60,144 bases of DNA from an uncultured Candidatus Saccharibacteria bacterium (GCA_964490125.1 CAZBAJ010000006.1:1-60144); one strand, 5' to 3'; positions 14,023-60,144 are shown, counted from the stretch's first letter. Notes: generated by a model not told the origin, from the sequence alone. Numbers and translations are program-made.

Positions 14023-14900
14023 TAGATATTAATTAGATGCCACCTAAATAGAGGTAAAGTTTTGCAACTGATCTTTTGTTTATGCAGAAGAATAAAATAT
14101 GCCCCAAAGGGCACATATTTAAACGAACTAAGTCCCGTATTCCGTCAATTTAAGATTGTTACTAGAGCAAATAAAGTATGACAAATGCTTGTTAGTTCAC
14201 TTATAAAAATACGCGAACTATTTCCGTCCTGTAATAACAACAAAACTCACATAATGTTAAAAAATAAGTGAACTATTTTGGGAGCCTGGTTTTAAGGTTG
14301 TCAAGATAACCTAAAAACACAGACACATAAAAACATATTCAAACACCCAAACAAACATCTAAATACAAAAACCTCCACCCAGCCACCCAAGATAAACAAA
14401 CACTCATATAAATACATACATACATACATACATACATACATACATACATACATACATACATACATAAACAGACAGATTATTAGACGGGTAATAAATAAGT
14501 AAATACAAAAATACAAACTAACCCAAACACCCAACAGCATAAACAACAAAAACCAAAATTAAATTAGAAAACTAAAACACCAAAACTAAAACACCTAAAA
14601 ATATAACTATTACTGCCAATATTAAACACTCCACCGCCGTGACCGTGATAACAGCCACCGTAGCCTATGATATTTAAGAACTAGGGTAGTTCGTTAATTA
14701 TTTTAGAAAACTAGGTATTTGCTTTAACAACAGCTTAAAAATAGTTCGCAAATAAATATAACTGAACAATGTCACAAATGTCATACAGTTAACGCCGTAG
14801 TAAAAGCCTTAAATCTATAAAAAGCAGTTTATTGTTCGTTTAAATATAGGGTCTAAGACCTAATAAAAAAAGAACCTGCGACGACAAAAAATACTATAAT
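14023..14900 (-). repeat. Long non-coding repeat element, copy A (inverted relative to B and C)
   Basis: Both arms match 16393-17255 in reverse complement; 14-bp inverted repeat 14115-14128/14834-14847; seven TAGTTC/GAACTA boxes. Confidence 0.88.
14413..14464 (+). repeat. (TACA)13 microsatellite
   Basis: 13 perfect tetramer units counted. Confidence 0.97.
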
Positions 14901-14950
14901 ATCCAGCGCGAAGGGTATAACATGTAAGTTGATTTTGCTAAAATAACCCT

Positions 14951-16081
14951 ATGAACCTGTTTGTTATTATTACCTCTTATAAAGAGGAAGCGACCATAGG
15001 GAAGGCGGTTGAGCAGATTATTTGTCCAAATAGAGATTTGTGGTCGCAGTTAAGGCTTATAATAACTTCTCCAGATCAAGATACCTTAAAAAAGGCAGAA
15101 GAAGTATGTCAAACTTATGGATTTGTAAATTTCCAACTTTTACAAGATTTGGGTCAAGGGAAAGCTAGTGCCTTAAATTTAGCCGTGGAGACAATTACAA
15201 AGGTACACTCTATCAATCCCAAAGAAGATCTGCTAATCCTAACAGATGGTGATATGTACATAGCGGACGACGCTATAAACCATTTACTTAATAGCTTTAG
15301 TTCTGCTCAAAATCCAAGATCAGAACAAAATCCAAGCGTGTGCAAAAAACCGAAATCATTGACAAATACAGACAAAAGTATTTTTAATGTCGATACGGGT
15401 GACCAAGCTGACCCCAATGCCAAAATGTTAAGCGGGGTAGGGGGGCATCCGGTTTCTTTAGACAGCCGTACAACCATGTTTGGTTATTTTTCTCATTTAT
15501 TTTGTGAGGCGGCTCATAAAAGGCGATTACACAACGATTCATTGTTCTGTAATGTTAAGTCCGATAAGCATGATGACAATGCATACTTTGGCTCGCAGAA
15601 TTTTATCCCTATGAGCGGTTATTTATATGCTTTTAGTCTGGTTGACGGGCTTTTTCCCATACCGCCCCAAGTCCGTGCGGAGGATGCCTACATTTCCCAA
15701 AAACTTTTGTCGCTTGGTTATAGCTACGGTTACGCACCCAAAGCTTTGGCGTATGTAAAGTTCCCAAAAAATTTAAGCGACTGGTATAAACAAAAAACCC
15801 GCTCTTTGGGAGGAAATGTGCAGCTAAAGTCGCTAAGAGAGTCAACTAGCGATGTTTCTGCTTCAGTTGAGGACTCCATGAGATGTTTCAAAAGTCGCTC
15901 CATTTTGCAGGACTTGGAGATGGTGTTTTTTCCATTAACCTTTGCCAAAACCCCCAAAGAGTTTCTCTGGTCGTTACTCCTTTACCCTTTGCGTCTGTTT
16001 TTATGGTTAAAAATCTATTTTAACCACGCATTTAACCGCTATAAGTCTGGCATGTGGGAACGGATAGAAAGCTCCAAATAA
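14951..16081 (+). CDS. Glycosyltransferase family 2
   Basis: IITSYKEE, ILTDGD, AEDAYIS motifs. Confidence 0.85.
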   Translation: MNLFVIITSYKEEATIGKAVEQIICPNRDLWSQLRLIITSPDQDTLKKAEEVCQTYGFVNFQLLQDLGQGKASALNLAVETITKVHSINPKEDLLILTDGDMYIADDAINHLLNSFSSAQNPRSEQNPSVCKKPKSLTNTDKSIFNVDTGDQADPNAKMLSGVGGHPVSLDSRTTMFGYFSHLFCEAAHKRRLHNDSLFCNVKSDKHDDNAYFGSQNFIPMSGYLYAFSLVDGLFPIPPQVRAEDAYISQKLLSLGYSYGYAPKALAYVKFPKNLSDWYKQKTRSLGGNVQLKSLRESTSDVSASVEDSMRCFKSRSILQDLEMVFFPLTFAKTPKEFLWSLLLYPLRLFLWLKIYFNHAFNRYKSGMWERIESSK

Positions 16082-16084
16082 CTT

Positions 16085-16158
16085 TGGCAGAGGCGGAGAG
16101 AATCGGACTCCCACAAATGGTTTTGGAGACCATTGTACTACCATTATACGACGCCTCC
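16085..16158 (-). tRNA. trnW: tRNA-Trp (CCA)
   Basis: Cloverleaf with anticodon arm ATGGT-CTCCAAA-ACCAT and encoded CCA; atypical T-loop TCCGATT. Confidence 0.9.
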
Positions 16159-16162
16159 CCGA

Positions 16163-16336
16163 TTACTTTAATTTTTGTTTTTCTTTGTGTGCCGTGGTTT
16201 TTCTGCAAGTCCTGCAGTATTTTTTAAGTTCCAGTTTTTCTGCGTCGTTTATTTTGTTTTTAGAAGTCACATAGTTGGACGACTTACAGACACTGCATTG
16301 CAAACCTATTAGCACACGATTTGTCTTTTTAGCCAT
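16163..16336 (-). CDS. rpmG: 50S ribosomal protein L33 (Zn-binding form), 57 aa, missing from the ORF track
   Basis: MAKKTNRVLIGLQCSVCKSSNYVTSKN...LELKKYCRTCRKTTAHKEK; precedes trnW as usual. Confidence 0.95.
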   Translation of the reverse strand: MAKKTNRVLIGLQCSVCKSSNYVTSKNKINDAEKLELKKYCRTCRKTTAHKEKQKLK

Positions 16337-16392
16337 AACTACGCCAGTTTATCTTAAAAGACTCTGTTTTGCAACTTGTAGTCTTGTCGCAT

Positions 16393-17255
16393 TAGATAGT
16401 ATTGTTCGTCATCTTAGGTTCTTTTTGACTAGGTCATAGACCCCATATTTAAACGAACAATAAACTACTTTTATTAAATTTAAGGCTTTTACTACGGCGT
16501 AAACTTTATGACATTTGTAACATTGTTCGGTTATATTTTTTTTGCGAACTATTTTTAAGCTGTTGTTAAAGCGAATACCTAGTTTTCTAAAATAATTAGT
16601 GAACTACCCTAGTTCGTAAATATCACAGGCTACGGTGGCTATAATTACGGCTCTACAGGCATGCTTAACTTTCTTGGGTATTATTGTACAGTCTTGGTAA
16701 TAATAAGTTGTCTCGGTGTCTGGGTGCCTAAATGTGTTTGGATATGTATTTATTTAGGTTTTTGTTGTATTTGAGGGTTTCAGTAAGTACTCGTTTGTTT
16801 ATGTATTTAATTGTTATAGTAGCAATGTATTAATTTAAGTTTTGTTTGTACTGGGTGTTTGGGCAGAGATATTGCTATTTAGGTGTTTGAGTATGTATTT
16901 ATGTGTCAGCGTTTTTAAGTTGTATTGACAGCCTTAAAACTATACTCCCGACATAGTTCACTTATTTTTTAATGTCATGGGGATTTTGTTGTTATTGCAG
17001 GAAGGAAGTAGTTCGCGTATTTTAATAAGTGAACTAACGGATGATTGTCATACTTTATTTATTGTAGTAACAACTTTAGATTAACAAAACATGGCTATTA
17101 GTTCGTTTAAATACCTGCCTTTTGGGACATACTTTGTTCTTTTGCTTAAACAAAAGATCAGTTGCAAAACCTTACCCCTATTTAGGTGACAAATAATAGT
17201 ATCTAAAAAAGGCAGCTAAAAAAATGCCGTTTAGACGACATCAAATTAATATCTA
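16393..17255 (+). repeat. Long non-coding repeat element, copy B
   Basis: 13-bp perfect inverted repeat 16446-16458/17101-17113; outer 10/11 inverted repeat 16393-16403/17195-17205; seven TAGTTC/GAACTA boxes. Confidence 0.88.
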
Positions 17256-17406
17256 GCATGTCTCCAGTATTTCTGACGCGCCGGGTAGTGTTAAGAAGTC
17301 TGTGTAACCCTCCTTCTTCTTTTAGATAGCGCTTTTCCCAATATCATCCCGTTGCCAAGCCATGTACCTCATCGTTTTATCCGTTGAATTTAGGAGTAGG
17401 GTTAAA

Positions 17407-17625
17407 TCATTCTTCCAAGTCGTATACCGCTTCATAGTAAATTTTTGGAAATCTACCTTTTTTAATGACACGACCCTCGTCCAAAAGAATTTTTAGATAT
17501 TTATAGATAGAGGTTTTTCTGACCTTACTTAAGCGTTTTTGAATAGTAGACGCCCGTAGTTTTTGCGACTGTGAAATAATAAGATACAGATCCTCTTTGA
17601 CATATACACTCGCCTTTCTGCCCAT
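17407..17625 (-). CDS. Small basic winged-helix-like DNA-binding protein
   Basis: 72 aa, ...SIYKYLKILLDEGRVIKKG..PKIYY wing pattern; TATAAT 6 nt before ATG. Confidence 0.6.
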   Translation of the reverse strand: MGRKASVYVKEDLYLIISQSQKLRASTIQKRLSKVRKTSIYKYLKILLDEGRVIKKGRFPKIYYEAVYDLEE

Positions 17626-17925
17626 TTTTGTATTATATCGACAAAAAGATATTTTAAAAGACGGTAATCTCTATTTTTACAAGAATTTGCTGTTATAGCG
17701 GGGAAATTAGCACATTGTGTTTTTTACTGTCGTACTTGAACCCAGAACCCTTGTTCGTTTATTCAATACTCGATTCGACATTTTGTTGTCATCGCAAGTC
17801 AAAATTAGTTCGCAAATTTGAATAAGTGAATTAATAGGTATTTTTACCTTGTTTTTGCTTGTAACGGCGGGGCTGGGGACTCTACAAGCGTTTGATTGTT
17901 CGACTTACTTTAGGAAGTCCAATTG

Positions 17926-18001
17926 TGGAGCCCACTCGCGGAATCGAACCGCGGACCTACTCCTTACCATGGAGTTGCTCTGCCGGCTGAGCTAAGTGGG
18001 C
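17926..18001 (-). tRNA. trnT: tRNA-Thr (GGT)
   Basis: Cloverleaf, ACTCC-ATGGTAA-GGAGT, GTTCGATTC, CCA. Confidence 0.95.
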
Positions 18002-18014
18002 CCGTCAAACAAAC

Positions 18015-18168: not shown

Positions 18169-18174
18169 ATAATG

Positions 18175-18249: not shown

Positions 18250-18493
18250 AGACTCCGTCCAAGATGGCGGATCCTGGGATGTTTCTTTGCCGTCCTCCCG
18301 CGTCGCTCCATTTACTAAACTGACCATGGAATTTTAGCATTTCTGCCGTGGGGTGTATATCCCAGGCATTAGATAGCATCGGTCGTCGTCATGTCAGGTT
18401 CCATTTGTTAGACATTAATTCAATGTCATCGAGATAGCCTTTACCTTCAGCCTGCTTGTCCAAAAACCAAATCTATGCTTAAATAGCCCAGTT

Positions 18494-19644: not shown

Positions 19645-19664
19645 TGCGAGCGTAGCGAAGCAAC

Positions 19665-21012: not shown

Positions 21013-21678
21013 ATGGTGTTAAAAATTCCTTTTGAAGATTCGCGCTTTCCGGAGTCGGTCAAAAATTTTAAAAACCCGCCTCAAGTGTTGCATATTCTTT
21101 GTGACGACAAAGTAGGGCGGGATTTTGCGTGGCCAAAGCGCAGTTTGGCAGTGATTGGCAGTAGGACAATGAGTGACTACGGTAAAAAAGTGGTGTGGGA
21201 TTTTGTGCCACAGTTGGTTGACGCGGGGATCGCGGTGGTTTCCGGCTTGGCGGAAGGTGTGGATGAAGAAGCTCAACGGGCGGTTTTGCGTTGTAGCGGT
21301 GTAACAATCGGAGTTTTAGGTTTTGGGGTAAATAAACTTGGCGATTTTAGCAATAAAGAGCTGGGTGAGCAGGTAGTTAAGTCGCAAAAAGGCTTTTTGG
21401 TATCGGGGTTTGACCCTTTTATGTCAGCCTCTAAATGGACTTTTTTAGAGCGCAATAGGCTTATTGCCGGTTTGGCAGACGCACTTTTAGTAATTGAAGC
21501 TACCCAAAAAAGTGGATGTATGTCAACCGTGGAGGCAGCGTTGGAAATTGGCAAGGAGGTGTATGTGGTACCCGGTAGCATTTTTGACTACACTAGCATG
21601 GGGGCAAACGAGCTTATTAAACAGGGCGCTCATTTGGTAAATCGGGTTGAGGATGTTTTGTCCGACTTGCAATTTTGA
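21013..21678 (+). CDS. dprA: DNA processing protein DprA
   Basis: AVIGSR, VVSGLAEGVD, FLERNRLIAGL, VYVVPG; adjacent to topA. Confidence 0.92.
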   Translation: MVLKIPFEDSRFPESVKNFKNPPQVLHILCDDKVGRDFAWPKRSLAVIGSRTMSDYGKKVVWDFVPQLVDAGIAVVSGLAEGVDEEAQRAVLRCSGVTIGVLGFGVNKLGDFSNKELGEQVVKSQKGFLVSGFDPFMSASKWTFLERNRLIAGLADALLVIEATQKSGCMSTVEAALEIGKEVYVVPGSIFDYTSMGANELIKQGAHLVNRVEDVLSDLQF

Positions 21679-48807: not shown

Positions 48808-51444
48808 ATGTCAAATAAAACCAGTCAACTAAGCTCTAATTCTACCGCCCAACGCAATTTAATTCCGCCACATGATTTAGACGCGGAAAAGTCCGTTTTG
48901 GGGGCAGTGCTTATTAGCGAAGATGCGCTTATTAAGGTGGTGGAAACTCTAAAGTCAGAACATTTTTATAAAAGCGCGCACGCCAGCATTTACGAGGCGG
49001 TGCTAAATCTGTATGAAAAACGCCAGCCTATAGACCTTATTACCTTGCCGGAGGAACTTAAAAAGCATAAGTTGCTTACGGAAATTGGCGGACTTTCTTA
49101 TCTTACGGAGTTGGTCAATTTTGTGCCCACCGCGTCAAATGTGGAATTTTACGCCAAAATTATTGTAGACAATGCTTTGCGACGGAGTTTAATTACCGCT
49201 AGTGCCAAAATAAATGAAATGGCGTTTGACAAAAGTGAGGTGGAAGGCTTGTTGGACGAGGCAGAGCAGGAAATTTACGCGGTTTCGCAAGACAGGTTGC
49301 ATCAGGATTTTGTGCCGATTTCTGACACTTTACAAATAACTTTTGAGCGACTTGATGAGTTAAGCAAAACCAAGGGCGCGCTGCGGGGCGTACCCACAGG
49401 TTTAAAAGGTGTGGACAGGATGCTTTCTGGTTTCCAGCGGGAAAACTTAATAATTTTGGCAGCGCGCCCGTCTGTTGGTAAGTCGTCCTTTGCTATTAAC
49501 TGCGCCCAGTATGCCGCTACTACCCATAAAAAATCAGTCGGCATATTTTCTCTAGAGATGGGTAGGGAACAGTTGGTGGACAGGATGATTTCCGCGCAGG
49601 GCGACATTGACAACTGGCGGATAACAACAGGAAATTTGCACGAGGAGGACTTTGAAAAATACGGCATTGCGGCGGGGGAGCTAGCAGAAGCGCCTATTTA
49701 CATTGACGATACGCCGGGCATTGGCATTTTAGAACTTCGCACCAAAGCTCGTCGCCTTCACATGGACAAAAAAATCGACTTGGTTATTGTGGACTACTTA
49801 CAGTTGATTCACGGTCGTACTACAGAAAGTCGCACCCAAGAAGTATCAGAAATTTCCCAGGCGTTAAAAAATTTGGCAAGAGAGCTAAAAATTCCCGTTT
49901 TGGCTCTGTCACAATTGTCCCGCGCGGTAGAAATTAGGGGAGGGGATAAACGCCCGCAACTAAGCGACCTTCGTGATTCGGGATGTTTGCTGGGCGACAC
50001 TTTAATAACCCTTGCCGACTCCGGAAAACGGATACCTATTAAGGATCTGGTCGGCAAACGCGACTTTGATATCCTTGCGGTGGACGACGATTTTAAGTTA
50101 AAGCCCGCAAAGGCATCAAGAGTATTTTCAAGCGGTAAAAAACAAGTTTATAGGCTAACGACTGTTTCGGGAAAACAAATCACTGCCTCCGCTAATCACC
50201 CCTTTTTAACTTTGGCGGGTTGGGTAAGGCTGGATGGGTTAAAAATAGGGGATGCCGTTGCCACGCCGAATTATATTCAAATTCAAGGGCTAGTCGGTAC
50301 ATTAAATGACAACAAATTAATTTTATTAGCCCATCTTTTGGGTGACGGGTGCTTTGTAGAAAGGCAACCTTTACACTACACAAATTCAGAGATGGAATTA
50401 ATCAACATAGTAAAAGACGCGGCACGCGTGGAATTTAATATCGAGCCGCGGATTGTACCGCAGGAGAGTTGGTTTCATTTATACCTTAGTGCAAAGGAAA
50501 AATTAACGCATAATAAAAGAAACCCTATTGTAAAATGGTTGGACGAGGAAATGGGCATTTATGGACTACATTCTTATGAGAAATTTGTTCCTGATGCTGT
50601 TTTTGCCCTACCTCCAGATAAAATCGCTCTGTTTCTTAAACATCTTTGGGCTACAGATGGTTGCATCTACACTTCAAAAACAGCTAAATCCACTCATTCT
50701 GCAACTGCTCATTATTCTACCAACAGCATAAAGTTAGCAAGAGGCGTCTCACATCTACTGTTACGGTTGGGGATTATAAGTACAATTCAAGCAGGTCATA
50801 AAAAGGGTTACAAAGATGTTTATATGGTTACTATTCAAGATAAGGACAATTTAGAAAGATTTTTAACTAAAGTAGGCTGTACTGGTACCAAAGCTACAAA
50901 GGTAAAAGAAGCTCTAGCTATACTGGTCGACATAAAAGGAAACCCCAACAACAATATAATTCCAAAGTCTGTCTGGTCGTACATTAAACGGGTATCCAAA
51001 GAAAAAGGCTTTACAACAAGATCTTTTGCCGAGGAGCTGGGTATTAAATACAACGGAACCGCAATATACAATAACGGGATAGGTAGAGAGCGACTATTAA
51101 AGATCGCAAAAATTTTGAAGGACGATTACCTTACCAACCTTGCTACATCGGATGTTTATTGGGATAAAGTTAAATCCATAGAAAAGCTAGGATTGGAAGA
51201 AGTATACGACATGACGGTGCCGGGAATGGTTAACTTTGTAGCAAACGACATTCTTGTACACAACAGTATCGAACAGGATGCGGATGTTGTCATGTTTTTA
51301 TTTAGACCAAACGAGGAAGACCGCATAAATCACAAGTTACTAATCGCCAAACATAGAAACGGTCCCACCGGGGAAATCGACCTTTTCTTTAAGGCCGACA
51401 GAACGCGTTTTTTTGAAGCCGAGACTAAAATTAAGGACAAGTGA
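48808..51444 (+). CDS. dnaB: Replicative helicase DnaB containing an intein
   Basis: PPHDLDAE, AARPSVGKS, IVDYLQL, LSQLSR, SDLRDSG|...|SIEQDAD. Confidence 0.97.
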   Translation: MSNKTSQLSSNSTAQRNLIPPHDLDAEKSVLGAVLISEDALIKVVETLKSEHFYKSAHASIYEAVLNLYEKRQPIDLITLPEELKKHKLLTEIGGLSYLTELVNFVPTASNVEFYAKIIVDNALRRSLITASAKINEMAFDKSEVEGLLDEAEQEIYAVSQDRLHQDFVPISDTLQITFERLDELSKTKGALRGVPTGLKGVDRMLSGFQRENLIILAARPSVGKSSFAINCAQYAATTHKKSVGIFSLEMGREQLVDRMISAQGDIDNWRITTGNLHEEDFEKYGIAAGELAEAPIYIDDTPGIGILELRTKARRLHMDKKIDLVIVDYLQLIHGRTTESRTQEVSEISQALKNLARELKIPVLALSQLSRAVEIRGGDKRPQLSDLRDSGCLLGDTLITLADSGKRIPIKDLVGKRDFDILAVDDDFKLKPAKASRVFSSGKKQVYRLTTVSGKQITASANHPFLTLAGWVRLDGLKIGDAVATPNYIQIQGLVGTLNDNKLILLAHLLGDGCFVERQPLHYTNSEMELINIVKDAARVEFNIEPRIVPQESWFHLYLSAKEKLTHNKRNPIVKWLDEEMGIYGLHSYEKFVPDAVFALPPDKIALFLKHLWATDGCIYTSKTAKSTHSATAHYSTNSIKLARGVSHLLLRLGIISTIQAGHKKGYKDVYMVTIQDKDNLERFLTKVGCTGTKATKVKEALAILVDIKGNPNNNIIPKSVWSYIKRVSKEKGFTTRSFAEELGIKYNGTAIYNNGIGRERLLKIAKILKDDYLTNLATSDVYWDKVKSIEKLGLEEVYDMTVPGMVNFVANDILVHNSIEQDADVVMFLFRPNEEDRINHKLLIAKHRNGPTGEIDLFFKADRTRFFEAETKIKDK
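49984..51264 (+). mobile_element. 427-aa intein with LAGLIDADG homing endonuclease
   Basis: Starts CLLGDT, ends VANDILVHN before S; LAHLLGDG and HLWATDG blocks. Confidence 0.95.
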
Positions 51445-51460: not shown

Positions 51461-51546
51461 GCCGTGGTGGCGGAATGGCATACGCGGTGGTCTCAAAAAC
51501 CACTGGAGGCAACTCTGTGTGGGTTCGACTCCCACCCACGGCACCA
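51461..51546 (+). tRNA. trnL: tRNA-Leu (CAA)
   Basis: GTGGT-CTCAAAA-ACCAC, long variable arm, A73, CCA. Confidence 0.94.
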
Positions 51547-51548
51547 AA

Positions 51549-52350
51549 TTATGGTTGTAATTCTAAAGCTTTTTGATACCAATAAGCTAAATCTCCTTGA
51601 CTAGAAGCCCAACGATAGAATTCTGCCACCGCCCAGTTCTGAAAGTAAGTTACATCCGTAAGCCCATATTTAGTTTTAACCTCGTCAAGCCATACATAAA
51701 GATCCTTTTCGCCACTTTCTAAAGTTTCAAAATCCAGTACGACTCCCTCTGGCGGTTGTAAGTCATCCCAGAGTTTGGGATCTAATGGACCTGCCAAAGC
51801 TTCAGAAATGGTCCAGCTTTGATCGGCTCTAAAATCCGGTTCCCCGTTTGAATCGAGTATGTACAAATTAAAGGCGGGGTGTGTAGGTTCGTGCAGTACT
51901 GCCCTGATTGTTGCAGGATTATCTAGACCTTGCTCAAGAAAATAGTCTGTGTTTAAGTAACAGGTGCAGACGTTGCATTGTGCGGGCGGGATCGGCTTTA
52001 TACCTAAATCACCGTAATATTCCAGCATCGTTGCCTGATCGCCAACAAAAATCAGTATTGGTTGGGTTTTTGCACCTGTAACTTGCTCGATTTTATTAAG
52101 CGTGGGTTCGGCTAAATTGCCCACAAATTCTAAAAAACGGGGATCTCCTATAACAACACAATGTTCTAGCTTTAATGTTTCGCAACTCTCTCTCCAAGAA
52201 GTGTGAAAAGAATTTTATATCCTGTTCACGGTAGAATCCATCTGGTTTTTGACCGGGAAACATGCCCTGTAGCCTTACCTCATCGGCATTTCCCGCCGTT
52301 TCAAGAAGTCGTTTTAGACCTTCGTCCATTTGCTGTTTTTCGTCTGACAT
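51549..52350 (-). pseudogene. Hypothetical HExxH protein split into two overlapping ORFs
   Basis: ORFs 52096-52362 and 51549-52124 overlap in different frames across a (CT)4 tract; HEPTH motif in the second. Confidence 0.45.
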
Positions 52351-52414
52351 AATATGTCGCAATTATACAATAATAGAGGTTGCCAGTGTAATTTGGTGTT
52401 ATAATTCCGTAAAC

Positions 52415-52969
52415 ATGATCGCATCCGACCTTAAAACAGGAAAAGTGTTTAAAGAAAATAACGCGCCGTTTTTGGTGGTTAAGTACGAGCATGTTAAATC
52501 CGCTAGAGGTGGGGCGGCGGTTAAGGTGATTGCCAAAAATCTGATTTCCGGTTCCGTTTTGGAAAAAGGCTATAAAGCAGGGGATTCCGTGGAAGAAGCC
52601 GATGTTTACAGAAAAAATGCGCAGTACCTTTATAAAGACTCGGCGGGATATAATTTTATGGATCCCCAGTCGTACGACCAATTTAGTATAGACGAGTCCA
52701 CCATAGAGTCCGAGGGCAAGTATTTAAAAGACGGCATGAATGTTGTGGTAGTTTATTTTGAGGACAAGCCTATTTCCATAGAACTTCCTAACTCGCTGGT
52801 TTTTGAAGTTGCCTATACCGAGCCTGGTTTTAAAGGTAATACGGTTTCTAATGTCTACAAAGATGCAGAGCTGGATAACGGCATGAAGGTAAAAGTACCC
52901 ATGTTTATTAAAATAGGGGAAAAGGTTAAGATTGACACTAGGACGGGGGACTACTTGTCTAAAGCCTAG
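52415..52969 (+). CDS. efp: Elongation factor P
   Basis: MIASDLKTG, HVKSARGGA, TEPGFKGNT, VPMFIKIGE. Confidence 0.95.
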   Translation: MIASDLKTGKVFKENNAPFLVVKYEHVKSARGGAAVKVIAKNLISGSVLEKGYKAGDSVEEADVYRKNAQYLYKDSAGYNFMDPQSYDQFSIDESTIESEGKYLKDGMNVVVVYFEDKPISIELPNSLVFEVAYTEPGFKGNTVSNVYKDAELDNGMKVKVPMFIKIGEKVKIDTRTGDYLSKA

Positions 52970-53043
52970 GTTAGTAAGTATTGGCAGAAGCATATTCAGA
53001 GCGATTGTATTGATTGGATAAATAGAAAGTAGCGATAAATAGA

Positions 53044-53081
53044 CATAAGAAATTACTGTGAAGCGTAATTTCGTTGGCTAT
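53044..53081. repeat. REP-like palindromic repeat, copy 1
   Basis: GAAATTAC-TGTGAAGC-GTAATTTC-GTTGGCTAT. Confidence 0.75.
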
Positions 53082-53119
53082 TTATCGCGATGGTTGCTTG
53101 TAATAATTGACTAAAGCGA

Positions 53120-53170
53120 CCCCATAGCCATAAAAAGTTACTGCGAAGTGTAACTTTGTTGGCTATGGGG
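53120..53170. repeat. REP-like palindromic repeat, copy 2
   Basis: CCCCATAGCCA/TGGCTATGGGG outer stem; AAAGTTAC/GTAACTTT inner stem. Confidence 0.8.
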
Positions 53171-53183
53171 AGCGTTACTTAAG

Positions 53184-53813
53184 ATGCTTAACACTACGGT
53201 TCACTCACTTGTAATAGCCATAACAACCCTCACCGGTCTATACAGCTTTTGGTCGTCCTGCAAAAAAGACGGCTTTGACCAAGAAAAAGCCCTTGATTTA
53301 GTTATTTTAGGACTTTTGGGAGGCGGGGCGATTGGCGTAGTAACAGGAATAATTATATCCTGGGCAGTTGTGGTAAATTTTGCCAATATAAACCCGTTTA
53401 GCGTGCTTTTTGGATTTGTGGGCACAGTCTCTTTTGTCGTCCTAAAATGGAAGTGGTCTCTGTACCGTGTTTTAGATAATTTAGCCGTTGCGCTTACCCT
53501 TTTGGCAGGTTTTTGGTTACTTACTCAAAACCTAGTCGGTCAATTTAAACCCATTTATCTTATCGCGTCGCTTTTACTTTTTGTCATTTACGCTTTGCTC
53601 CAAAAATACCGTCTGCTAGTCCTAAAATCGGGGTTTACTTTTTGCCTTACCTGCGGGGTTTTTTGCCTAGCCAGCGCCCTGTCGTCGCCCAAATTTGTCA
53701 ACTTGATATTTATTGGACTTTTGTTTACACTTATCTTGACCGTATTAATTTTTAGGGTGAGGAGTTTATATGGCAGAACTAAAAAAAATGGTAGTACCCC
53801 CGTTAATGCTTAG
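53184..53813 (+). CDS. Lgt-like membrane protein (reduced)
   Basis: Multi-TM; ALDLVILGLLGG and YRVLDNLAVA resemble prolipoprotein diacylglyceryl transferase. Confidence 0.5.
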   Translation: MLNTTVHSLVIAITTLTGLYSFWSSCKKDGFDQEKALDLVILGLLGGGAIGVVTGIIISWAVVVNFANINPFSVLFGFVGTVSFVVLKWKWSLYRVLDNLAVALTLLAGFWLLTQNLVGQFKPIYLIASLLLFVIYALLQKYRLLVLKSGFTFCLTCGVFCLASALSSPKFVNLIFIGLLFTLILTVLIFRVRSLYGRTKKNGSTPVNA

Positions 53814-54138
53814 AGATTTAGTTTTACGACTTTGGAAGCGAAGCAAAGAGCTTAAAAAAGAAGAAGAGCTAGTTAAGCAGTCCGACCCGTTATTGCAAGA
53901 GGAAAGTGCCGACAGATCAGAATCAGCAGAAAGTACTGCCGTGGATGTGGAAAAAAATATTCATGACGCCAGACTTAATTTAATTCAAGGTGCTAGGTTG
54001 GAGATTAGAAAGGCTTTGGCTAAGGTACGGATTGGTACTTACGGCATTTGCGAAGTATGCAAAAAGCCTATTGATTTAGCCAGACTTAAGGCTTTTCCTC
54101 AAGCGACAAAATGCTTTGATTGTGCCAAAAAGGACTAG
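53770..54138 (+). CDS. TraR/DksA C4 zinc-finger protein
   Basis: IRKALAKV..GTYGICEVCKKPIDLARLKAFPQATKCFDC. Confidence 0.9.
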   Translation: MAELKKMVVPPLMLRDLVLRLWKRSKELKKEEELVKQSDPLLQEESADRSESAESTAVDVEKNIHDARLNLIQGARLEIRKALAKVRIGTYGICEVCKKPIDLARLKAFPQATKCFDCAKKD

Positions 54139-54186
54139 TCGCTTAAGGCTGTTTTGGTAGTTTAGGTAAGGTTTGGACAGAATAAA

Positions 54187-54567
54187 GTGGATATGAACAA
54201 AGTTTTACTAATAGAGGACGAAAAAGATATAAGAAGCGTTTATGCGGAATATTTGCGCGACAGTGGCTACGAGGTTTTAGAGGCGCCAGATGGGGTTATC
54301 GGTTTAAAAAAGGCTTTGGAGGAGGCTTGGGATGTTATGCTTTTGGATATAATGCTCCCAGGTGAGGATGGTTTGCAGTTACTAAAAAAACTTAAGGTCA
54401 CGGAGACGGTAAAAGACAGGCCGGTTATTGCCCTTACTAATTTAAATATCGACTCGGTAATTAATGAGATGTTTGATTACGGTGCGGACGGCTTCTTGGT
54501 AAAATCGGAGATTACGCCCGACAAGATTGTGAGTGAGATAGAGGCGGTGTTGCAAAAATACTCTTAA
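54187..54567 (+). CDS. Single-domain response regulator
   Basis: LLIEDE, LLDIMLP, IALTN, LVKS. Confidence 0.9.
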   Translation: MDMNKVLLIEDEKDIRSVYAEYLRDSGYEVLEAPDGVIGLKKALEEAWDVMLLDIMLPGEDGLQLLKKLKVTETVKDRPVIALTNLNIDSVINEMFDYGADGFLVKSEITPDKIVSEIEAVLQKYS

Positions 54568-54576
54568 TGTATTGCT

Positions 54577-55296
54577 TTGGCTATGGACATTCCAATTATA
54601 TTTGAAGATGACTTTTTGCTAGTTATTGATAAGCCTGTTGGTATAAGTGTGACGGAAGAAGAGGGGGGCTTTGTGACGGGTTTGCGGTCGGAAAAAAGTG
54701 AGACGGTTAAGGACTGGGTAAAGCATAGGTACAAATTTGTGGATTGTGTGGGCGGACACGAAGACCAGTTTGAACAAAGATTTGGTATTGTACATCGGTT
54801 GGATAAAGAAACTTCCGGTGTGTTGTTGGTTGCCAAAACTAAAGAGGTTTTTGACTATTTAAAAGGGCTTTTTAAGTATAGAAGAATTCACAAAGAGTAC
54901 CAAGCTTTAGTTTACCGAATTATTACGGACGGCAGATTTGAGATTTCTGCTCCCGTTGGAAGAGATAAAGATAGCGGTACGGCTTTTAATGTGGACGAGG
55001 GGGGTAGGCAGTCCACTACAGAATTTAAGGTTGTTAAGAGAATTCAGATTCCGTTTCCGTCAACCTACCTATTTGCTTATCCTAAAACAGGTCGCACACA
55101 CCAGATTAGAGTCCATCTTAAAGCCTTTGGTCACCCGGTAGTAAATGATCACAAATATGCCTCAAGGATATTTTTAGAGTCGTCCAAAAACTTCTCAACC
55201 AGAATGATGTTACACGCCAAAAGCATTGATTTTACTGATTGGGACGGCAAGAAACGGCTTTTTGCGTCGTCCATAAATCTTACTGACTTTTTTTAG
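54577..55296 (+). CDS. RluA-family pseudouridine synthase
   Basis: VIDKPVG, VHRLDKETSG, TGRTHQIRVH. Confidence 0.93.
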   Translation: MAMDIPIIFEDDFLLVIDKPVGISVTEEEGGFVTGLRSEKSETVKDWVKHRYKFVDCVGGHEDQFEQRFGIVHRLDKETSGVLLVAKTKEVFDYLKGLFKYRRIHKEYQALVYRIITDGRFEISAPVGRDKDSGTAFNVDEGGRQSTTEFKVVKRIQIPFPSTYLFAYPKTGRTHQIRVHLKAFGHPVVNDHKYASRIFLESSKNFSTRMMLHAKSIDFTDWDGKKRLFASSINLTDFF

Positions 55297-55340
55297 AAAT
55301 AGGTCTTCACAAATTTTATAGAGTGTGATAGAAGTTATAT

Positions 55341-56351
55341 GTGCGTAAGAGTACTGCCCAAAAGAGAAAAATACGCTCTTTGTATGTCAAAAGGCGAAAT
55401 AAAAAGGTTAAAGCTACTTTATTGGTAGGAATTTCACTAGGACTTTTGGGACTATTTTTCCTCGGCAAGTCAATTGTTGCTCCCGCAGTTTCTGCTTATA
55501 GTGCTGGCTCCAGCGACCTTAAAGACAAAGATATTTACTCAACATTATTGGTAGAAAAAGATGACGCCGATTTTGTTAAAACAGCAAAAATCTTAATTTT
55601 TCAAAAGAAAGATGCCAAATTATACTCAATTAACATTCCCGTTGATTTAAAAATAGACTTACCTGGTAGGTTTGGCGAGGAAGAATACCAAAAAATCCTT
55701 AAGCTGGCGGAGACAACGGGTGAAGTCGGTAAGAGCGAGGAATTACTTATAGAAGCAACAAAAAAAGTACTCAAAATTAATGTCGACCGCTATATTATAA
55801 CTACCAAAGACTCGCTGGATCTAATTAACGGGGCTATTTTTAAAAAAGAGTTTGGACTACTTGCGCCTTGGGAAACTACTAACCTTATTAAAAATTCACA
55901 ACTTAATTTTACCGGTGGGGAATTATTGGATATGGTTATGTTTGCTCGCGGATTAACCGATCGGGATATAAGTTACATTGACTTAAATCAGGTAGCGGAT
56001 TTAGGATTAAAGTTGCGCGACATTACGCTTAGTGGCGCAATGGCAAGGGAAAGCCTGGGTGTGGTGGTGTTAAACGGTACAGGTAAGCCCGATGTAGCCA
56101 AAGAGGCTTCCCAAGTTTTTCAGAACATGGGGGCAAGAATTTCCCTCACTGCCAATGCGGAAAACGAGTATGAAAAAAGCTATTTGATAACGGACGATCC
56201 CTTAAGTGCCACCGCAAGATATATTAAAAGTTACTATCCCAACATAAATATTGTTAATACCGCATCCGCGTCATCTTTAGGGGAGGACCTGTTGGACAGG
56301 GGAGACATTTGCGTAATTGTGGGTTTTGACATTTTGGCACAGCAGGAATAA
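55341..56351 (+). CDS. LCP/LytR C-terminal-domain membrane protein
   Basis: N-terminal TM; VVVLNGTGKPDVA...DICVIVGFD. Confidence 0.75.
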   Translation: MRKSTAQKRKIRSLYVKRRNKKVKATLLVGISLGLLGLFFLGKSIVAPAVSAYSAGSSDLKDKDIYSTLLVEKDDADFVKTAKILIFQKKDAKLYSINIPVDLKIDLPGRFGEEEYQKILKLAETTGEVGKSEELLIEATKKVLKINVDRYIITTKDSLDLINGAIFKKEFGLLAPWETTNLIKNSQLNFTGGELLDMVMFARGLTDRDISYIDLNQVADLGLKLRDITLSGAMARESLGVVVLNGTGKPDVAKEASQVFQNMGARISLTANAENEYEKSYLITDDPLSATARYIKSYYPNINIVNTASASSLGEDLLDRGDICVIVGFDILAQQE

Positions 56352-56412
56352 ACTTTTATAAGTCTCTCCTTTCTAACCCTTAATATTTTGGCGCGTGACT
56401 GGTTTGTTAAGC

Positions 56413-56453
56413 TAGCCATAAGAAGTTACTGTGAAGCTTAACTTCGTTGGCTA
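56413..56453. repeat. REP-like palindromic repeat, copy 3
   Basis: TAGCCA/TGGCTA outer stem; GAAGTTA/TAACTTC inner stem. Confidence 0.8.
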
Positions 56454-56477
56454 TGGTGAGCGTCGTAAAACAAAGTT

Positions 56478-59400
56478 ATGTTATATGTAGTCCTTATAAT
56501 AATTGCGCTGGCAGTAGCTGGAAGATTCCTCGCAAAGAGGTTTAAAAAGTCGTACAAAACCTTAAACTTTGTTGCCGACCGTGTCATTTTTGAAATAAAA
56601 GTCCCCAAAATTACGGACGAAGAAGCTACATTTAAGACCGCAGCTATGGCAATGGAAAGCTTTTTTGCTTCACTTCACGGACTTTTAAAGTCCAAAGGTG
56701 AGGACGACGAGTATTTTAGCTTTGAGGTAATTTCCAAGCCAGGTTTGGGTATTAAGTTTTATGTGGTGTGTTCAGAAAAATCGTCAAACTTTGTGGAAGG
56801 TCAAATTTACGCCAATTATCCCTCGTCGCAGGTTGTTAAGGTGGACGACAATTTTGAGGATTTTTCCAAGGACAGCTACTGGGAAATGGCGCAACTAGAA
56901 GAAATAAAAAACCATATTTTTCCGCTAAAAACTTATGTGGACTTGGAGCTGGACAGCATGTCGTCGGTGACTTCGGCCATGTCGCAGTTGGTGGACGGGG
57001 AAGTGGTGGCTTTTCAACTTTTAACAAAACCTGTGGGCGACATTTGGCAAAAAGAAGGTAACGATTATGTAGCCATAATGAAAACGGGCAAAAATCCTCA
57101 AGAACGCAGTGGCGAGCCAAATTTAATTGTTTTGGTGTTGACGGAGTTTTGGAGTATTTTAGTTAGAATTTTAACAGAATCAGCCAGAATTTTTGGTGGT
57201 TCCGACAGTGGGGAAGGCGACCGCGGAATTAAAACTTCCGCGCCTGCGCCCAAACTAACCATTGTTCAAGAAATGGAAGTTAATTCCATAGAAAATAAAA
57301 TGGCAAAAATGGGTTTTACGGCGCAGGCGCGCTTTTTAGTGTCAGCCAAAACGCCTGATCGGGCAAAGCACAATATGCGCTCGGCAGTAGCCTCCATGAA
57401 TCAGTTTTCCACTACCAATTTAAATAGTTTGGTCGTTGGCCAAACGCTAACGGGTGTAGATGCCTACAATAACTTTGTCGACAGGACTTTTGATGAAGCG
57501 CGTGCCTATGTCTTAAATGTGGAAGAGTTAGGATCTTTATATCATCTGCCGTCCCAAAAAGTAGAAACTCCCAACATCGGCTGGTCGTACTCCAGAAAAA
57601 CCGAACCTCCCGCGGGTCTGCCCACCCAAAACTGCACCTACATTGCTGATACGGTCTTTAGAGATCAAAAAGTTCGCTTTGGACTTGATAACGGCGACGA
57701 CCGCTTGCGTCACATGTATGTTATTGGCAAATCCGGTACAGGCAAGTCCACCATTTTTGAAAACATGATTTCCCAGGATATTGCAAACGGCTTTGGCGTT
57801 GGTGTTTTGGATCCACATGGTGAAACAATAGACAAAGTATTAGACCGCATTCCGTCAAACCGCGTGGATGATGTTATCTATTTTGACCCGTCCGACACCG
57901 AAAGTCCCGTAGGTCTTAATCTTTTAGAAATGACCGACTTGTCGCAAAAAAACCTTATGGCCTCCGCGCTAGTGTCGGCCATTAAACACCATTTTGACTA
58001 TTCTTGGGGTCCCAGGCTTGAATACTTATTAAATTATGCCATTCTAACCCTCCTGGAGGTCCAAGGCACCACTATGTTAGGTATCACGCGACTTATGGAG
58101 GACGACAACTACCGCAACTTTATTTTGCACAATGTTAAGGATCCTGTGGTTTTAAAATTTTGGGACACCGAATTTAAAAACATGAAGAACAATCCCCGCC
58201 TTATTACAGAAGCCGTTGCGCCTATTCAAAACAAAGTCAACCGGTTTCTTGCGTCGTCCACTATTAGGAACATTTTGGGTCAGCGCAAGTCCACTATTGA
58301 CATTGAAGATGCCATGAATAACGGCAAAATTCTGCTTATGAACCTTTCTAAAGGCAAAATAGGGGAGGATAATGCGGACTTGTTGGGGGCGCTCCTTGTT
58401 TCCAGAATCCAGTTTTTTGCCTTACAGCGGGCTAATATCCCATCCAGCGAGCGGAGGCCGTTCTATTTATATGTGGACGAATTTCAAAATTTTGCGACGG
58501 GTAGTTTTGAGTCTATTCTGTCCGAGTCGCGCAAGTATGGGCTTGGACTTTATTTAACCCACCAATACACTGCCCAACTTCCGGAGGAACTGCTAAAAGC
58601 CGTTTTAGGCAATGTCGGCACAATTATTGCCTTTGCCTTAGGTACGCCGGATGCCAAGGCTTTGCAAGGTGAATTTGCGCCGTACTTCACTGACACGGAC
58701 ATTATTTCTTTAGAGCGATTTCATGTCTATATGAAACTTATGATGGACGGGATGACCTCGCTGCCGTTTTCTGCCAAAATTTTGCGCCCGTGGGTGGAGG
58801 AGGAGTGCATTGTGCCAAAGTCAGACAACAAGCAGTGGGTTTTAGAGCTTAGCCGCCAAAAGTTTGGGGTGGACAAGCTTGCGGTGGAGGACAAGGTAAG
58901 AAAATGGGTGGACACCCCGTTTGACAAGGGGATGGCCATTTCTTACGACGCCAAAGGTGGAATAAATAATTACGCGGGACAGAATACGGCTCAAAAGCCG
59001 CAGGTTCAGCAACCCGTAACCCCACCAAAACAGGTTACGACGATATCACAACTATCGCGACCGTTAACCTCGACAGAACAAATTGCTCCAGCACAAACTA
59101 CCCCTGTGGCGATACAACCCCAACCCCAAAACCAACCCTCACGATTGGTAACCCCGCCAAAGCAAAACATCCAGACACCAGCACAATCCCAAACACCCCA
59201 ACCGATTGTCGAAAAAAACCCAAAGGATCTAGTTACTTCACATCACACCTTATCAAAGGAACAATCACAAGAACCGGTACAGAAACAATCGCCAGAACGA
59301 ATCAAAATCGATGTTCCAAGTCAGCCGATGATAAACCCAGCCAGCATTATCGACCGAGGTATTTTCGACGGGATAAACATGACGACAAAAGACGGCAAGA

Positions 59401-59771
59401 ATTATTCCGTCCAACCAAATTACGCGGCAAAAAGTGAGCTGGTGTTTGGTGACGAGTTGGAGATGTATAAAGAAGGGGAGAACGACAGGTTTAGACAGGC
59501 GATAAAAGTTCCAAGAAAAGATATTGAAGGAACTTTGCAAAAGAACGACAAAGGACTGTGGGGACTTCTAGCCACGGACGGGAGATTTTATCCAGTTTCC
59601 CAAACCGCCGTGGAATTTAACGAGTTTCAACCAGGTCAGCACATGTACGGTATTCTCCCTGCTAATATCGACTTTCCGCCTTTTTGTACTTTAGCGCTAA
59701 AAAAATATCGTAAGGAATTGCAAAAGCAGAAAGAACTCCAAAAACTCAAAACCGATCAAAGTTTACGCTGA
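56478..59771 (+). CDS. VirD4/TrwB-like (HerA-type) ATPase with P/Q-rich linker and extra C-terminal domain
   Basis: RHMYVIGKSGTGKS, LYVDEFQNF, SESRKYGL. Confidence 0.85.
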   Translation: MLYVVLIIIALAVAGRFLAKRFKKSYKTLNFVADRVIFEIKVPKITDEEATFKTAAMAMESFFASLHGLLKSKGEDDEYFSFEVISKPGLGIKFYVVCSEKSSNFVEGQIYANYPSSQVVKVDDNFEDFSKDSYWEMAQLEEIKNHIFPLKTYVDLELDSMSSVTSAMSQLVDGEVVAFQLLTKPVGDIWQKEGNDYVAIMKTGKNPQERSGEPNLIVLVLTEFWSILVRILTESARIFGGSDSGEGDRGIKTSAPAPKLTIVQEMEVNSIENKMAKMGFTAQARFLVSAKTPDRAKHNMRSAVASMNQFSTTNLNSLVVGQTLTGVDAYNNFVDRTFDEARAYVLNVEELGSLYHLPSQKVETPNIGWSYSRKTEPPAGLPTQNCTYIADTVFRDQKVRFGLDNGDDRLRHMYVIGKSGTGKSTIFENMISQDIANGFGVGVLDPHGETIDKVLDRIPSNRVDDVIYFDPSDTESPVGLNLLEMTDLSQKNLMASALVSAIKHHFDYSWGPRLEYLLNYAILTLLEVQGTTMLGITRLMEDDNYRNFILHNVKDPVVLKFWDTEFKNMKNNPRLITEAVAPIQNKVNRFLASSTIRNILGQRKSTIDIEDAMNNGKILLMNLSKGKIGEDNADLLGALLVSRIQFFALQRANIPSSERRPFYLYVDEFQNFATGSFESILSESRKYGLGLYLTHQYTAQLPEELLKAVLGNVGTIIAFALGTPDAKALQGEFAPYFTDTDIISLERFHVYMKLMMDGMTSLPFSAKILRPWVEEECIVPKSDNKQWVLELSRQKFGVDKLAVEDKVRKWVDTPFDKGMAISYDAKGGINNYAGQNTAQKPQVQQPVTPPKQVTTISQLSRPLTSTEQIAPAQTTPVAIQPQPQNQPSRLVTPPKQNIQTPAQSQTPQPIVEKNPKDLVTSHHTLSKEQSQEPVQKQSPERIKIDVPSQPMINPASIIDRGIFDGINMTTKDGKNYSVQPNYAAKSELVFGDELEMYKEGENDRFRQAIKVPRKDIEGTLQKNDKGLWGLLATDGRFYPVSQTAVEFNEFQPGQHMYGILPANIDFPPFCTLALKKYRKELQKQKELQKLKTDQSLR

Positions 59772-59981
59772 TTACTTGTGATAATATAGCTCTAACGCCT
59801 CATTTAAATTGCTTAACGCGTTTTTTCTAGTTTTACCAAAGCTGGCAACATCCACATCAAGGCATTGGGATACAAAGTAACGCCCTTCTTTCCAAATTGA
59901 GAACTGGTGGTGTTTTCTAGGGTTTTGTTTTTCCATTCCTTTATTCTACTACGACGCGGATTTTAACAGAAGTCAGCGCAT

Positions 59982-60144
59982 TAGATAGTATTTTATTGTC
60001 ATCGTAGATTCTTTTTTGGTAAGGCCACAGACCCTATATTTAAACGAACAATAAACTACTTTTATTAAATTTAAGGCTTTTGCTACAGGGTTAACTGTAT
60101 GACATTTGTGACATTGTTCAGTTATATTTATTTGCGAACTATTT
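59982..60144 (+). repeat. Long non-coding repeat element, copy C (cut by the window end)
   Basis: Matches the left arm of copy B; 22-bp ATATTTAAACGAACAATAAACT is identical in A, B and C. Confidence 0.88.

Follow-up and report, generated by a model that had tools for sequence, protein, structure and literature searches.

Gene-less foldback cassettes in an uncultured Saccharibacteria genome as candidate docking sites for a small winged-helix protein

We analysed a 60,144-nt stretch of DNA from an uncultured Candidatus Saccharibacteria bacterium (GCA_964490125.1, CAZBAJ010000006.1:1-60144; hereafter the window) and, within it, a family of intergenic foldback repeats present as three copies, A, B and C. 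Genomes of the candidate phyla radiation (CPR, or Patescibacteria) are tiny and gene dense, and their gene regulation and mobile DNA are little known. The window is an ordinary chromosomal stretch of this kind (with rpsB, tsf, frr, proS, dnaX, recR, cysS, prfA, dnaB, efp, topA, fmt and def among its genes), and nearly 2 kb of it is given to cassettes whose sole conserved content is a base-exact array of boxes. Copy A is flanked by the reverse-transcriptase (RT) region of a diversity-generating retroelement (DGR) and by a GT2 glycosyltransferase gene, B adjoins the gene for a winged helix-turn-helix (wHTH) protein, and C runs off the end of the window (Table 1). The best explanation of A, B and C is that they are gene-less members of a lineage-restricted foldback-cassette family. 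The initial annotation of this DNA had described them as an unexplained non-coding repeat; it missed the wHTH context, although the gene adjoins copy B and lies between the arms of the repeat in related genomes.

Sequence comparison confirmed the three copies at the places first given for them: A is the reverse complement of B, C is cut by the window end, and mutual identity is 82-92%. The boundaries proposed earlier were broadly right, except that homology with B, C and a cassette on another contig (L002, described below) puts the L end of A at about 14910, and that B truly ends at about 17206 rather than at 17255, positions 17207-17255 being a second, duplicated R terminus with a terminator-like site at 17242-17223. 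A 13- to 14-bp inverted repeat is present as described, but the homology reaches further: the two arms of a single copy, which we term L-type and R-type, are diverged inverted homologues across ~230 nt and flank an unconserved centre. By nhmmer, the arms of A matched at 14020-14327 (plus strand, E = 1.6e-65) and 14899-14637 (minus strand, E = 5.6e-71), and those of B at 16390-16654 (plus strand, E = 3.1e-70) and 17208-16902 (minus strand, E = 3.1e-62). The L arms of A, B and C are 87.5-89% identical across 160-256 nt and the R arms of A and B 82% identical across ~310 nt, which agrees with the likeness first judged by eye; the 22-nt block ATATTTAAACGAACAATAAACT can be seen directly to be identical in all three copies. 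The termini form an imperfect inverted repeat of ~22 bp (in B, between the L end, TTAGATAGTATTGTTCGTCATC, and the inner R end, TTAGATACTATTATTTGTCACC; in A, the termini are TTAGATATTAAT and TGGATATTAT).

Counting in A and B gave the seven GAACTA/TAGTTC hexamers per full copy that had been reported, the palindrome GAACTA-CCC-TAGTTC among them (14678-14692 in the L-type arm of A). There are 16 such hexamers in 2.06 kb of repeat DNA versus 13 in the remaining 58 kb. An apparent avoidance of GAACTA outside the repeats was discarded, since it vanished under higher-order background models (13 observed versus 16-19 expected). Each of the five arms of A, B and C contains a single TATTTAAACGAAC, and the pattern TATTTAAACGAAC-N75-95-GCGAACTA matched all five of these arms and none of 100 shuffles. 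The centres proved as unconserved as claimed: those of A and B (240-300 bp) are of low complexity, cannot be aligned with each other and are C-rich and G-poor on the sense strand, with an (ATAC)14.8 tract at 14408-14466 in A, and the centre of L002 measures 0 bp.

Fifteen arms from about seven genomes (the window, L002 and five relatives, L017-L021) were aligned. Four blocks, boxes of the form YGAAC(T)A, are invariant: box 1, TTTAAAYGAAC; box 2, GTTC (inverted); box 3, GCGAAC; and box 4, AATWARYGAAC. About 58 nt separate box 1 from the array GTTC-N14-GCGAAC-N44-AATWARYGAAC, the spacing of which is identical in 13 of 13 complete arms; the L-type arm of B has N15. All nine L-type arms carry a promoter-like element, ATGACA-N18-[TA]AT[AT][AT]T, directed into the cassette (16508-16537 in B; ATGACA at 60099 and TATATT at 60123 in C). 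Its spacer contains box 2, and its predicted start site coincides with box 3, so that the two boxes bracket the -10. The starts predicted in this way fall at about 16543-16547 (plus strand) in B, 14746-14750 (minus strand) in A and 60133-60137 (plus strand) in C. The corresponding hexamer of R-type arms ends in A in six of six (TATAAA in copy A, where the final position is not T), and ATGACA is missing from three of the six. As judged from the alignment, this difference is a systematic and probably functional asymmetry between the two arm types.

RNAalifold, run on eight L arms, gave a consensus energy of -1 kcal/mol and 0 compensatory pairs; the arms are therefore conserved at the DNA level. 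Between the window and the relatives, the wHTH gene has reached saturation at synonymous sites (dS ~1-1.6), a divergence at which neutral DNA should be unalignable, and the boxes and their spacing are invariant across it, which indicates selection on the arms. The base-exact geometry argues for a stereospecific protein-DNA complex. Indeed, the earlier proposal of multi-site ends or a synaptic site holds up in that the boxes are position-conserved to the base across the 15 arms. A hairpin before box 1 was dropped as a family feature, being significant in three gene-less R arms alone (z -2 to -4). Resemblances to LexA sites (Cheo box, GAAC-N4-GTTC), dif/Xer sites and the -35 of extracytoplasmic function (ECF) sigma factors were also rejected, as the spacings and partner half-sites did not fit.

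The wHTH gene next to copy B is a real gene under purifying selection (ratio of nonsynonymous to synonymous change, dN/dS, 0.1-0.2). An AlphaFold2 model of its product showed an H-E-H-H-E-E winged helix (pLDDT 73), and the best Foldseek matches of this model (AspA, PadR, ArsR and MarR, E ~0.01) are generic winged-helix proteins. It belongs to an orphan family, with five close homologs among 5.8 billion proteins and seven matches among 1.84 billion cluster representatives, and its distribution is as narrow as that of the arms. A TATAAT lies only 6 nt ahead of the ATG, which suggests a leaderless mRNA. Putative -10 hexamers 6-9 nt before the start codon were likewise noted for rpmG (16346-16336), GT2 (14939-14951) and wHTH itself (17640-17625), a placement which suggests that mRNAs of this organism may be leaderless or nearly so.

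The five relatives, which are the contigs that carry these close homologs, are syntenic where their flanks are visible, in the order tRNA-Thr/Tyr/Thr (L018), wHTH, rpmG, tRNA-Trp (L017 and L019). The gene-bearing form of the cassette thus sits between the tRNA-Thr/Tyr/Thr cluster and rpmG, and its remnant in the window is arm D, the wHTH gene and copy B. An L-type arm (arm 2) lies downstream of the wHTH gene in five of five relatives, and an R-type arm (arm 1) upstream of it in L018, L019 and the window, where it is arm D. The arms lie at 485-670 (plus) and 1362-1185 (minus) in L018 and at 1-156 (plus) and 851-674 (minus) in L019; L017, L020 and L021 show arm 2. A C-rich, G-poor tract also follows arm 2 in L017, L019 and L020. 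In the manner of an operator array, repeated sites therefore adjoin the putative regulator gene and are conserved with it (L017-L021 and arm D). The locus order in the relatives is arm 1, wHTH, arm 2, A/C-rich tract and R terminus, versus R arm, A/C-rich tract and L arm in the gene-less copies. Copies A, B, C and L002 look like an R-type and an L-type arm from which the wHTH gene has been removed, as far as their sequences suggest; an attempt to derive the gene-less order from that of the relatives gave no solution from the loci at hand. In L019 (449-457) the wHTH start codon is ATA instead of ATG with the remaining ORF intact, which may reflect loss of the start codon, an atypical start or an error in sequencing.

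Table 1. Coordinates of the cassettes, their parts and associated features in the window
Feature	Position	Strand	Remarks
Copy A, gene-less foldback cassette	14023-14910	L-to-R on minus	Reverse complement of B
Copy A, R-type arm	14023-14330	plus (outside to inside)	Terminus TTAGATATTAATTAGATG and TTGCAA module, then hairpin ATGCCCCAAAGGGCAT
Copy A, R-type arm, GAAC/GTTC cores	box 1, 14125; box 2, 14195 (inverted); box 3, 14215; box 4, 14270
Copy A, centre	14331-14636		Low complexity, unconserved; A 53%, C 25%, G 4% on plus (sense) strand
Copy A, L-type arm	14637-14910	minus	Inward promoter-like ATGACA-N18-TATATT at 14784-14755
Copy B, gene-less foldback cassette	16389-17206	plus	Between wHTH gene and rpmG
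Copy B, L-type arm	16389-16660
Copy B, centre	16661-16898
Copy B, R-type arm	16899-17206
Outer R-terminus remnant beside inner end of B	17207-17255	minus	CTAGATATTAATTTGATGTCGTCTAAACGG and terminator-like hairpin; by comparison with the A terminus
Copy C	59978-60144	plus	L-type arm alone visible, cut by window end; nhmmer E = 4.2e-44
wHTH gene, 72 aa	17407-17625	minus	Adjoins copy B and arm D; weak Pfam TrmB match, E = 3e-5
Arm D, decayed R-type arm	17749-17900	minus	Between tRNA-Thr(ggt) and wHTH gene; nhmmer 17838-17749, E = 1.3e-8
E, tandem solo termini	18366-18440	plus	GCATTAGATAGCATCGGTCGTCGTCATGTCAGGTTC then TTAGACATTAATTCAATGTCATC; 76% identity across 42 nt
Segment X	13792-14022	unstranded	Not homologous to the repeat family; missing from sister strain L015 along with copy A

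A search profile built from seven arms recovered arm D as a further piece of the family. Arm D is the ortholog of arm 1 in L018 and L019; its box 2 is mutated to TAATTC, and boxes 3 (TTGCGAACTAAT) and 4 (AATAAACGAAC) are retained. By nhmmer alone, E is not significant (E = 1.6). On the minus strand, 5-6 nt separate its end from TATACA-N17-TAAAAT, which is a putative promoter for the tRNA-Thr/Tyr/Thr cluster. At the start of segment X stands the DGR-associated motif TGTAAGAG-GG-A-GCGT-TACCCCA, here in its third copy.

The cassettes obey an orientation rule. The genes on either side of each cassette run in the same direction. At A, B and L002, the R end points to the 3' end of the gene upstream (RT region, wHTH gene and trpS, respectively), and the L terminus faces the downstream 5' end: that of GT2 at A, of rpmG at B, of a DUF7387 gene at C (59772-59936, minus strand, with its start 41 nt downstream of the terminus) and of tRNA-Ala/23S at L002. 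Of the solo termini, those of E point to the tRNA-Thr cluster and that of L019 to tRNA-Trp. Orientation and promoter geometry were read directly from the sequence, promoters being assigned by consensus match. The L terminus (...AACAATACTATCTAATGCG) stops 5-6 nt short of a putative -35, itself followed by a -10, at five of the six sites. The gap is 6 nt at A (ATAACA), 5 nt at C (TTCTGT), 5-6 nt at E (TATACA), 6 nt at L002 (TTGACA) and 5 nt at the solo terminus of L019 (GGGACA); at B it is 14 nt (TTGCAA). The element reached at A is ATAACA-N16-TAAAAT, the putative GT2 promoter. Because of the fixed gap to the -35-like hexamer, the A/T-rich L terminus would occupy the position of an UP-element or a class I activator. 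The C-rich, G-poor composition of the centre may, in turn, resemble a Rho-utilisation (rut) site.

These observations led us to favour, with a probability a little short of one half (about 0.45), the reading that A, B and C provide multiple docking sites for the wHTH protein and arose from the gene-bearing form as derivatives that lost the gene and were dispersed. Cooperative binding of the boxes by the wHTH protein would assemble a defined nucleoprotein complex on either arm and perhaps link the two arms. Binding to the L arm would then repress the inward sigma-70-type promoter ATGACA-N18-TATATT, because boxes 2 and 3 bracket its -10. In the gene-bearing form, the transcript so repressed would run antisense to the wHTH gene; in the gene-less forms, which themselves would be internal-deletion derivatives copied to other intergenic positions, it would be non-coding. 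Facing the upstream gene, the R-arm hairpin and the G-poor, C-rich centre would make a plausible insulator or terminator arrangement, and the A/T-rich L terminus 5-6 bp upstream of the downstream -35 could act on the neighbouring gene as an UP-element or activator position.

A close parallel to this docking arrangement is OL-cI-OR of phage lambda, in which a small repressor gene lies between inverted multi-operator arrays with embedded promoters and possible looping, as the putative repressor gene does here. Unlike the lambda promoters, which fire outward, the cassette L-arm promoter is directed inward; the wHTH protein is a 72-aa winged helix as opposed to the two-domain cI; and the family has dispersed gene-less paired arrays and no prophage context.

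Several points weigh against the docking reading. The link between wHTH protein and boxes is suggested by adjacency and co-distribution, and no box was found in the promoter region of the wHTH gene itself. Arm 1 is missing in L017 and L020, so that two arms are not obligatory. The count of promoter-like elements in the region is no higher than in shuffles, and the promoter, UP-element and rut-like assignments are consensus matches only. The reading provides gene-less copies with no route to new sites. Finally, the sample is small, comprising four gene-less copies and five gene-bearing loci.

Comparison with near-identical strains showed that cassette content is variable, in neither case by what looks like a clean insertion. 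Contig L015 (Logan SRR8925812), 96.5-97.9% identical to the window, carries rpmG, tRNA-Trp, GT2 and the DGR RT and starts inside the L arm of B, which is also present in sister-strain contig L016. L015 is without window positions 13792-14913 and has 45 bp in their place; its L-side junction lies no more than 3 nt from the terminus of A, and on the R side the 231 bp of segment X are absent as well. Contig L022, from the same sample as L015, is 99.84% identical to window positions 51519-59762 and departs from the window (at its position 8243) 9 nt before the stop of a traG/VirD4-like gene. The terminal codons of this gene are re-coded synonymously (TTA CGC TGA in the window versus CTT AGG TAG in L022), and L022 continues with TPR, YebC and RuvC genes where the window has the DUF7387 gene (~220 bp) and copy C. 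Because this re-coding extends over the final two codons and the stop, the C junction resembles a breakpoint of homologous recombination. In L023, a more distant relative, the backbone is the same and ~20 kb around the traG-like gene hold no arms; the site downstream of that gene differs among the window, L022 and L023. Candidate target-site duplications are weak (AGGGT near A, TGTC near B) and do not consistently abut the ends when A versus L015, B, C and L002 are considered. Copies A and B are inverted (82-92% identity, runs of 114-320 nt) around the segment 14911-16388, which holds GT2, tRNA-Trp and rpmG. As the sister strain is without A, the present orientation of this segment is ancestral.

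A second, doubtful explanation is that the cassettes are non-autonomous transposons resembling miniature inverted-repeat transposable elements (MITEs). Here, the arms would be multi-site transposase-binding ends and the centre an internal-deletion remnant, the copies being mobilised in trans by a transposase that is encoded elsewhere or lost, with the wHTH protein as cargo or transposition regulator. The imperfect terminal repeats of ~22 bp at the L end and inner R end of B (TTAGATAsTATT..TTyGTCAyC) fit such an element, as do the foldback architecture, the dispensable centre and the solo termini. The L boundary (C followed by GCATTAGATAG) is identical and sharp at B, C and L002 despite unrelated flanks; that of A falls within 3 nt of the point where homology with the empty sister-strain site resumes, so that four unrelated loci share a common L boundary, and A and C are missing from contigs 97-99.8% identical. 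The original proposal of a non-autonomous mobile element is favoured by the termini, the sharp L boundary and the polymorphism of A and C, with other observations against it. No target-site duplication can be defined, and both strain differences include non-repeat DNA (the 231 bp of X; the DUF7387 gene), with a recombination-like breakpoint at C. As first noted, there is no transposase among the ORFs scanned in the window (60 kb of genome); these include no integrase either, and the sole gene found between arms is wHTH. The copies are very few, with nothing in 241 million metagenome records or IMG/VR, and a single syntenic locus has retained its arms through saturating divergence, which is unexpected for dead transposon ends.

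Bacterial MITEs and other small intergenic mobile repeats (Correia/NEMIS, ERIC and RUP) have been reviewed (PMC2229807, PMC3184786). Like these, the cassettes are under 1 kb, free of ORFs, bounded by terminal inverted repeats, intergenic and strain-variable in copy number, and they may carry promoter-like and protein-binding motifs acting on neighbouring genes. Unlike them, the cassettes have arms of ~230 bp with four strictly spaced boxes in place of short terminal repeats, have yielded neither target duplication nor cognate transposase, number three to four copies only, and share their arms with a locus at which these bracket a conserved 72-aa wHTH gene in several species. Multi-site transposon ends are another analogy.

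Such ends include the TnsB sites of Tn7, attL/attR of Mu and the subterminal AAACGG repeats of maize Ac/Ds, with target duplications of 5 bp for Tn7 and Mu and 8 bp for Ac. They share with the cassettes short terminal repeats followed by ~100-250 bp with one motif in both orientations, and a dispensable interior. The cassette termini do not begin TG...CA as in Tn7 and Mu, however, and neither the 5- or 8-bp duplication nor a transposase was found for the cassettes; moreover, their L- and R-type arms differ systematically, the promoter-like element being present in the L type only. The docking and MITE readings are not mutually exclusive.

It is unlikely, in our estimate, that the family is a self-propagating CPR regulatory element in its own right, with the 72-aa wHTH as its sole gene, gene-less satellites upstream of host promoters and no transposase of its own. 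Such an element, of a kind not recognised before, would be a mobile operator or UP-element module that puts host genes under the wHTH protein, moved, for example, by host recombination or natural transformation.

We regard as improbable a cis-encoded RNA or small-peptide locus in the style of type I toxin-antitoxin systems or small RNAs, in which the L-arm promoter would drive a 350- to 650-nt RNA ending at the R-arm hairpin and T-run, or a GTG-started peptide would be made from GGCTACGGTGGCT. The inward promoter-like element is kept in all L-type arms, the outer R arm of A has a terminator-like hairpin and T-run in the matching direction (14116-14097, minus strand), and short hydrophobic ORFs start from a shared GTG in A (MAVITVTAVECLILAVIVIFLGVLVLVF), B and L002. 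These ORFs, however, vary in length (28, 21 and 19 aa), differ between A and L002 by about one synonymous and five non-synonymous changes, and are missing from the gene-bearing relatives. The centre, which would form the bulk of the RNA, is unconserved or absent, the arms show neither conserved RNA structure nor covariation (see above), and the symmetric conservation of boxes in promoter-less R arms would be left unexplained. LDR and SIB (QUAD) repeats of Escherichia coli are type I toxin-antitoxin loci of 0.3-0.5 kb in intergenic DNA. Like the cassettes, they were first noticed as unexplained non-coding intergenic repeats and have internal promoters and a small hydrophobic ORF, which in the cassettes is only possible; unlike them, the cassettes are least conserved in the putative peptide and RNA body and most conserved in the protein-box arrays. 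A conserved hydrophobic toxin ORF with an overlapping antisense RNA was not found, the R arm being without a promoter.

Coding and RNA searches of the repeats were equally negative. The arms contain no ORF longer than 39 aa, in agreement with the early finding of no convincing ORF; A-versus-B substitutions show no codon periodicity (mismatches by phase, 8/10/6 and 15/25/19); and the translated R-arm alignment had no match among 5.8 billion proteins. The copies are thus not the decayed duplicates of a protein gene that the initial annotation had named as a possible refutation. At the Rfam gathering score, only tRNAs were detected, and in E-value mode the region 13700-17900 gave a chance mir-297 match within (ATAC)n and a fragment of RNase P (E = 0.53), so that the repeats match no Rfam family.

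A role in chromosome organisation, segregation or fork arrest, with the arms as centromere- or Ter-like arrays bound by the wHTH protein, is given still less credence. Short-box arrays in inverted arms adjoining a wHTH gene would suit it. The small winged-helix protein gene of the Bacillus subtilis RTP/Ter system lies beside inverted sites, with further sites dispersed, and the AspA/centromere system of pNOB8 (5k5q, 4rs8) resembles the cassettes in the same respect, a small winged-helix gene standing beside inverted putative sites with others elsewhere. AspA also provides the best Foldseek matches, at E ~0.01 only, but the likeness is generic, PadR, ArsR and MarR scoring equally. Unlike RTP/Ter and AspA, the cassettes show no link to a replication terminus and no adaptor gene, and no partition ATPase gene stands beside wHTH at any locus. 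Their copy number differs between near-identical strains, which is unexpected of an essential site. The A/B pair does lie where cumulative GC skew turns from flat to rising (flat over 1-21 kb, then rising), but there is no V or peak at the repeats, and no DnaA box (TTATCCACA, up to one mismatch) occurs inside any copy. We therefore rejected a replication origin, and the suggestion that the repeats are a replication element found no support. Least credible of all is that they are functionless segmental duplicates of the intergenic DNA around wHTH, spread by recombination, whether illegitimate or homologous, in a naturally transformable organism: the messy sister-strain junctions, the likeness of the R-arm outer module to the region upstream of rpmG in relatives (TTAGATATTAATTAAATG...TTGCAA) and a DprA gene at 21013-21678 would fit, but not the boxes and spacing invariant over saturating divergence in syntenic and dispersed copies alike, the same L boundary at four loci, or the orientation rule and fixed distance to the putative downstream -35.

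The distribution of the family in public data was examined with a two-box pattern scan of 185,579 species-representative genomes, in which six loci matched and one was true. This locus, L002, is a contig of metagenome-assembled genome CAZTSS01 labelled Ca. Saccharibacteria; its 580-bp cassette, flanked by trpS and the tRNA-Ala/23S operon, consists of the two arms without a centre. A box-pattern scan of the Joint Genome Institute (JGI) metagenome collection (241 million records) returned eight loci, all chance matches, and two scans of IMG/VR viral contigs returned none. Copy B had no blastn match in 50,697 phage and 72,556 plasmid records. Exact look-up of the window rpmG protein led to contigs L015 and L016; the GT2, traG-like, wHTH and DUF7387 proteins had no exact match on record. 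We found nothing relevant in the literature on MITEs and repeat elements of Saccharibacteria and Patescibacteria. The family is accordingly very narrow in public data (one GTDB species representative and a handful of metagenome contigs) and matches no described one. On L002, a partial duplicate of a tRNA 3' half (TGGTGGACCCGACGGGATTCG...) was noted between tRNA-Ala and the cassette (1680-1790), and the contig has no 16S gene ahead of tRNA-Ala/23S, which may reflect either a split rRNA operon or a misassembly.

If the wHTH protein does bind the boxes, the family would constitute a compact, testable regulator-plus-site system in an uncultured lineage. Since cassettes abut the putative promoters of rpmG, of the tRNA cluster and, in a relative, of tRNA-Ala/23S, the expression of translation genes might be touched. 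If the cassettes instead move as transposons, they would represent a new MITE family with unusually long multi-site ends. They mark strain-variable spots, and A and B, being inverted, could readily recombine to invert the 1.5-kb GT2/tRNA-Trp/rpmG segment. The narrow distribution limits the general impact.

Other features of the window were noted in passing. The DGR occupies 5220-13800, with bAvd at 12021-12404, the RT at 12413-13387 and a further ORF at 13396-13800. A template repeat (TR)-like repeat lies at 11751-12031, and variable repeats (VRs), at 6538-6818 and 10437-10717, are located at the 3' ends of two target genes of the Lcl_C/Fib_succ_major type. A 57-nt motif follows each VR (6853-6909 and 7623-7679), the third copy, at 13796-13824, being partial. 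A 42-nt palindromic repeat, TAGCCATAAGAAGTTACTGTGAAGCKTAACTTCGTTGGCTAT, is intergenic at 53040-53081, 53125-53166 and 56413-56454 (83-100% alike); it is a small family separate from the cassettes and is also present in contig L022. An intein whose homing-endonuclease domain is of the LAGLIDADG type (Pfam Intein_splicing and LAGLIDADG_3) splits the DnaB helicase gene (48808-51444), and DnaB of L023 is intein-free, at 445 aa. PIN-domain ORFs at 4695-5144, 26541-26951 and 30912-31364 each follow a small ORF and look like toxin-antitoxin pairs, and a 1384-aa ORF at 330-4484 has a Peptidase_S74 (tail-fibre chaperone) domain.

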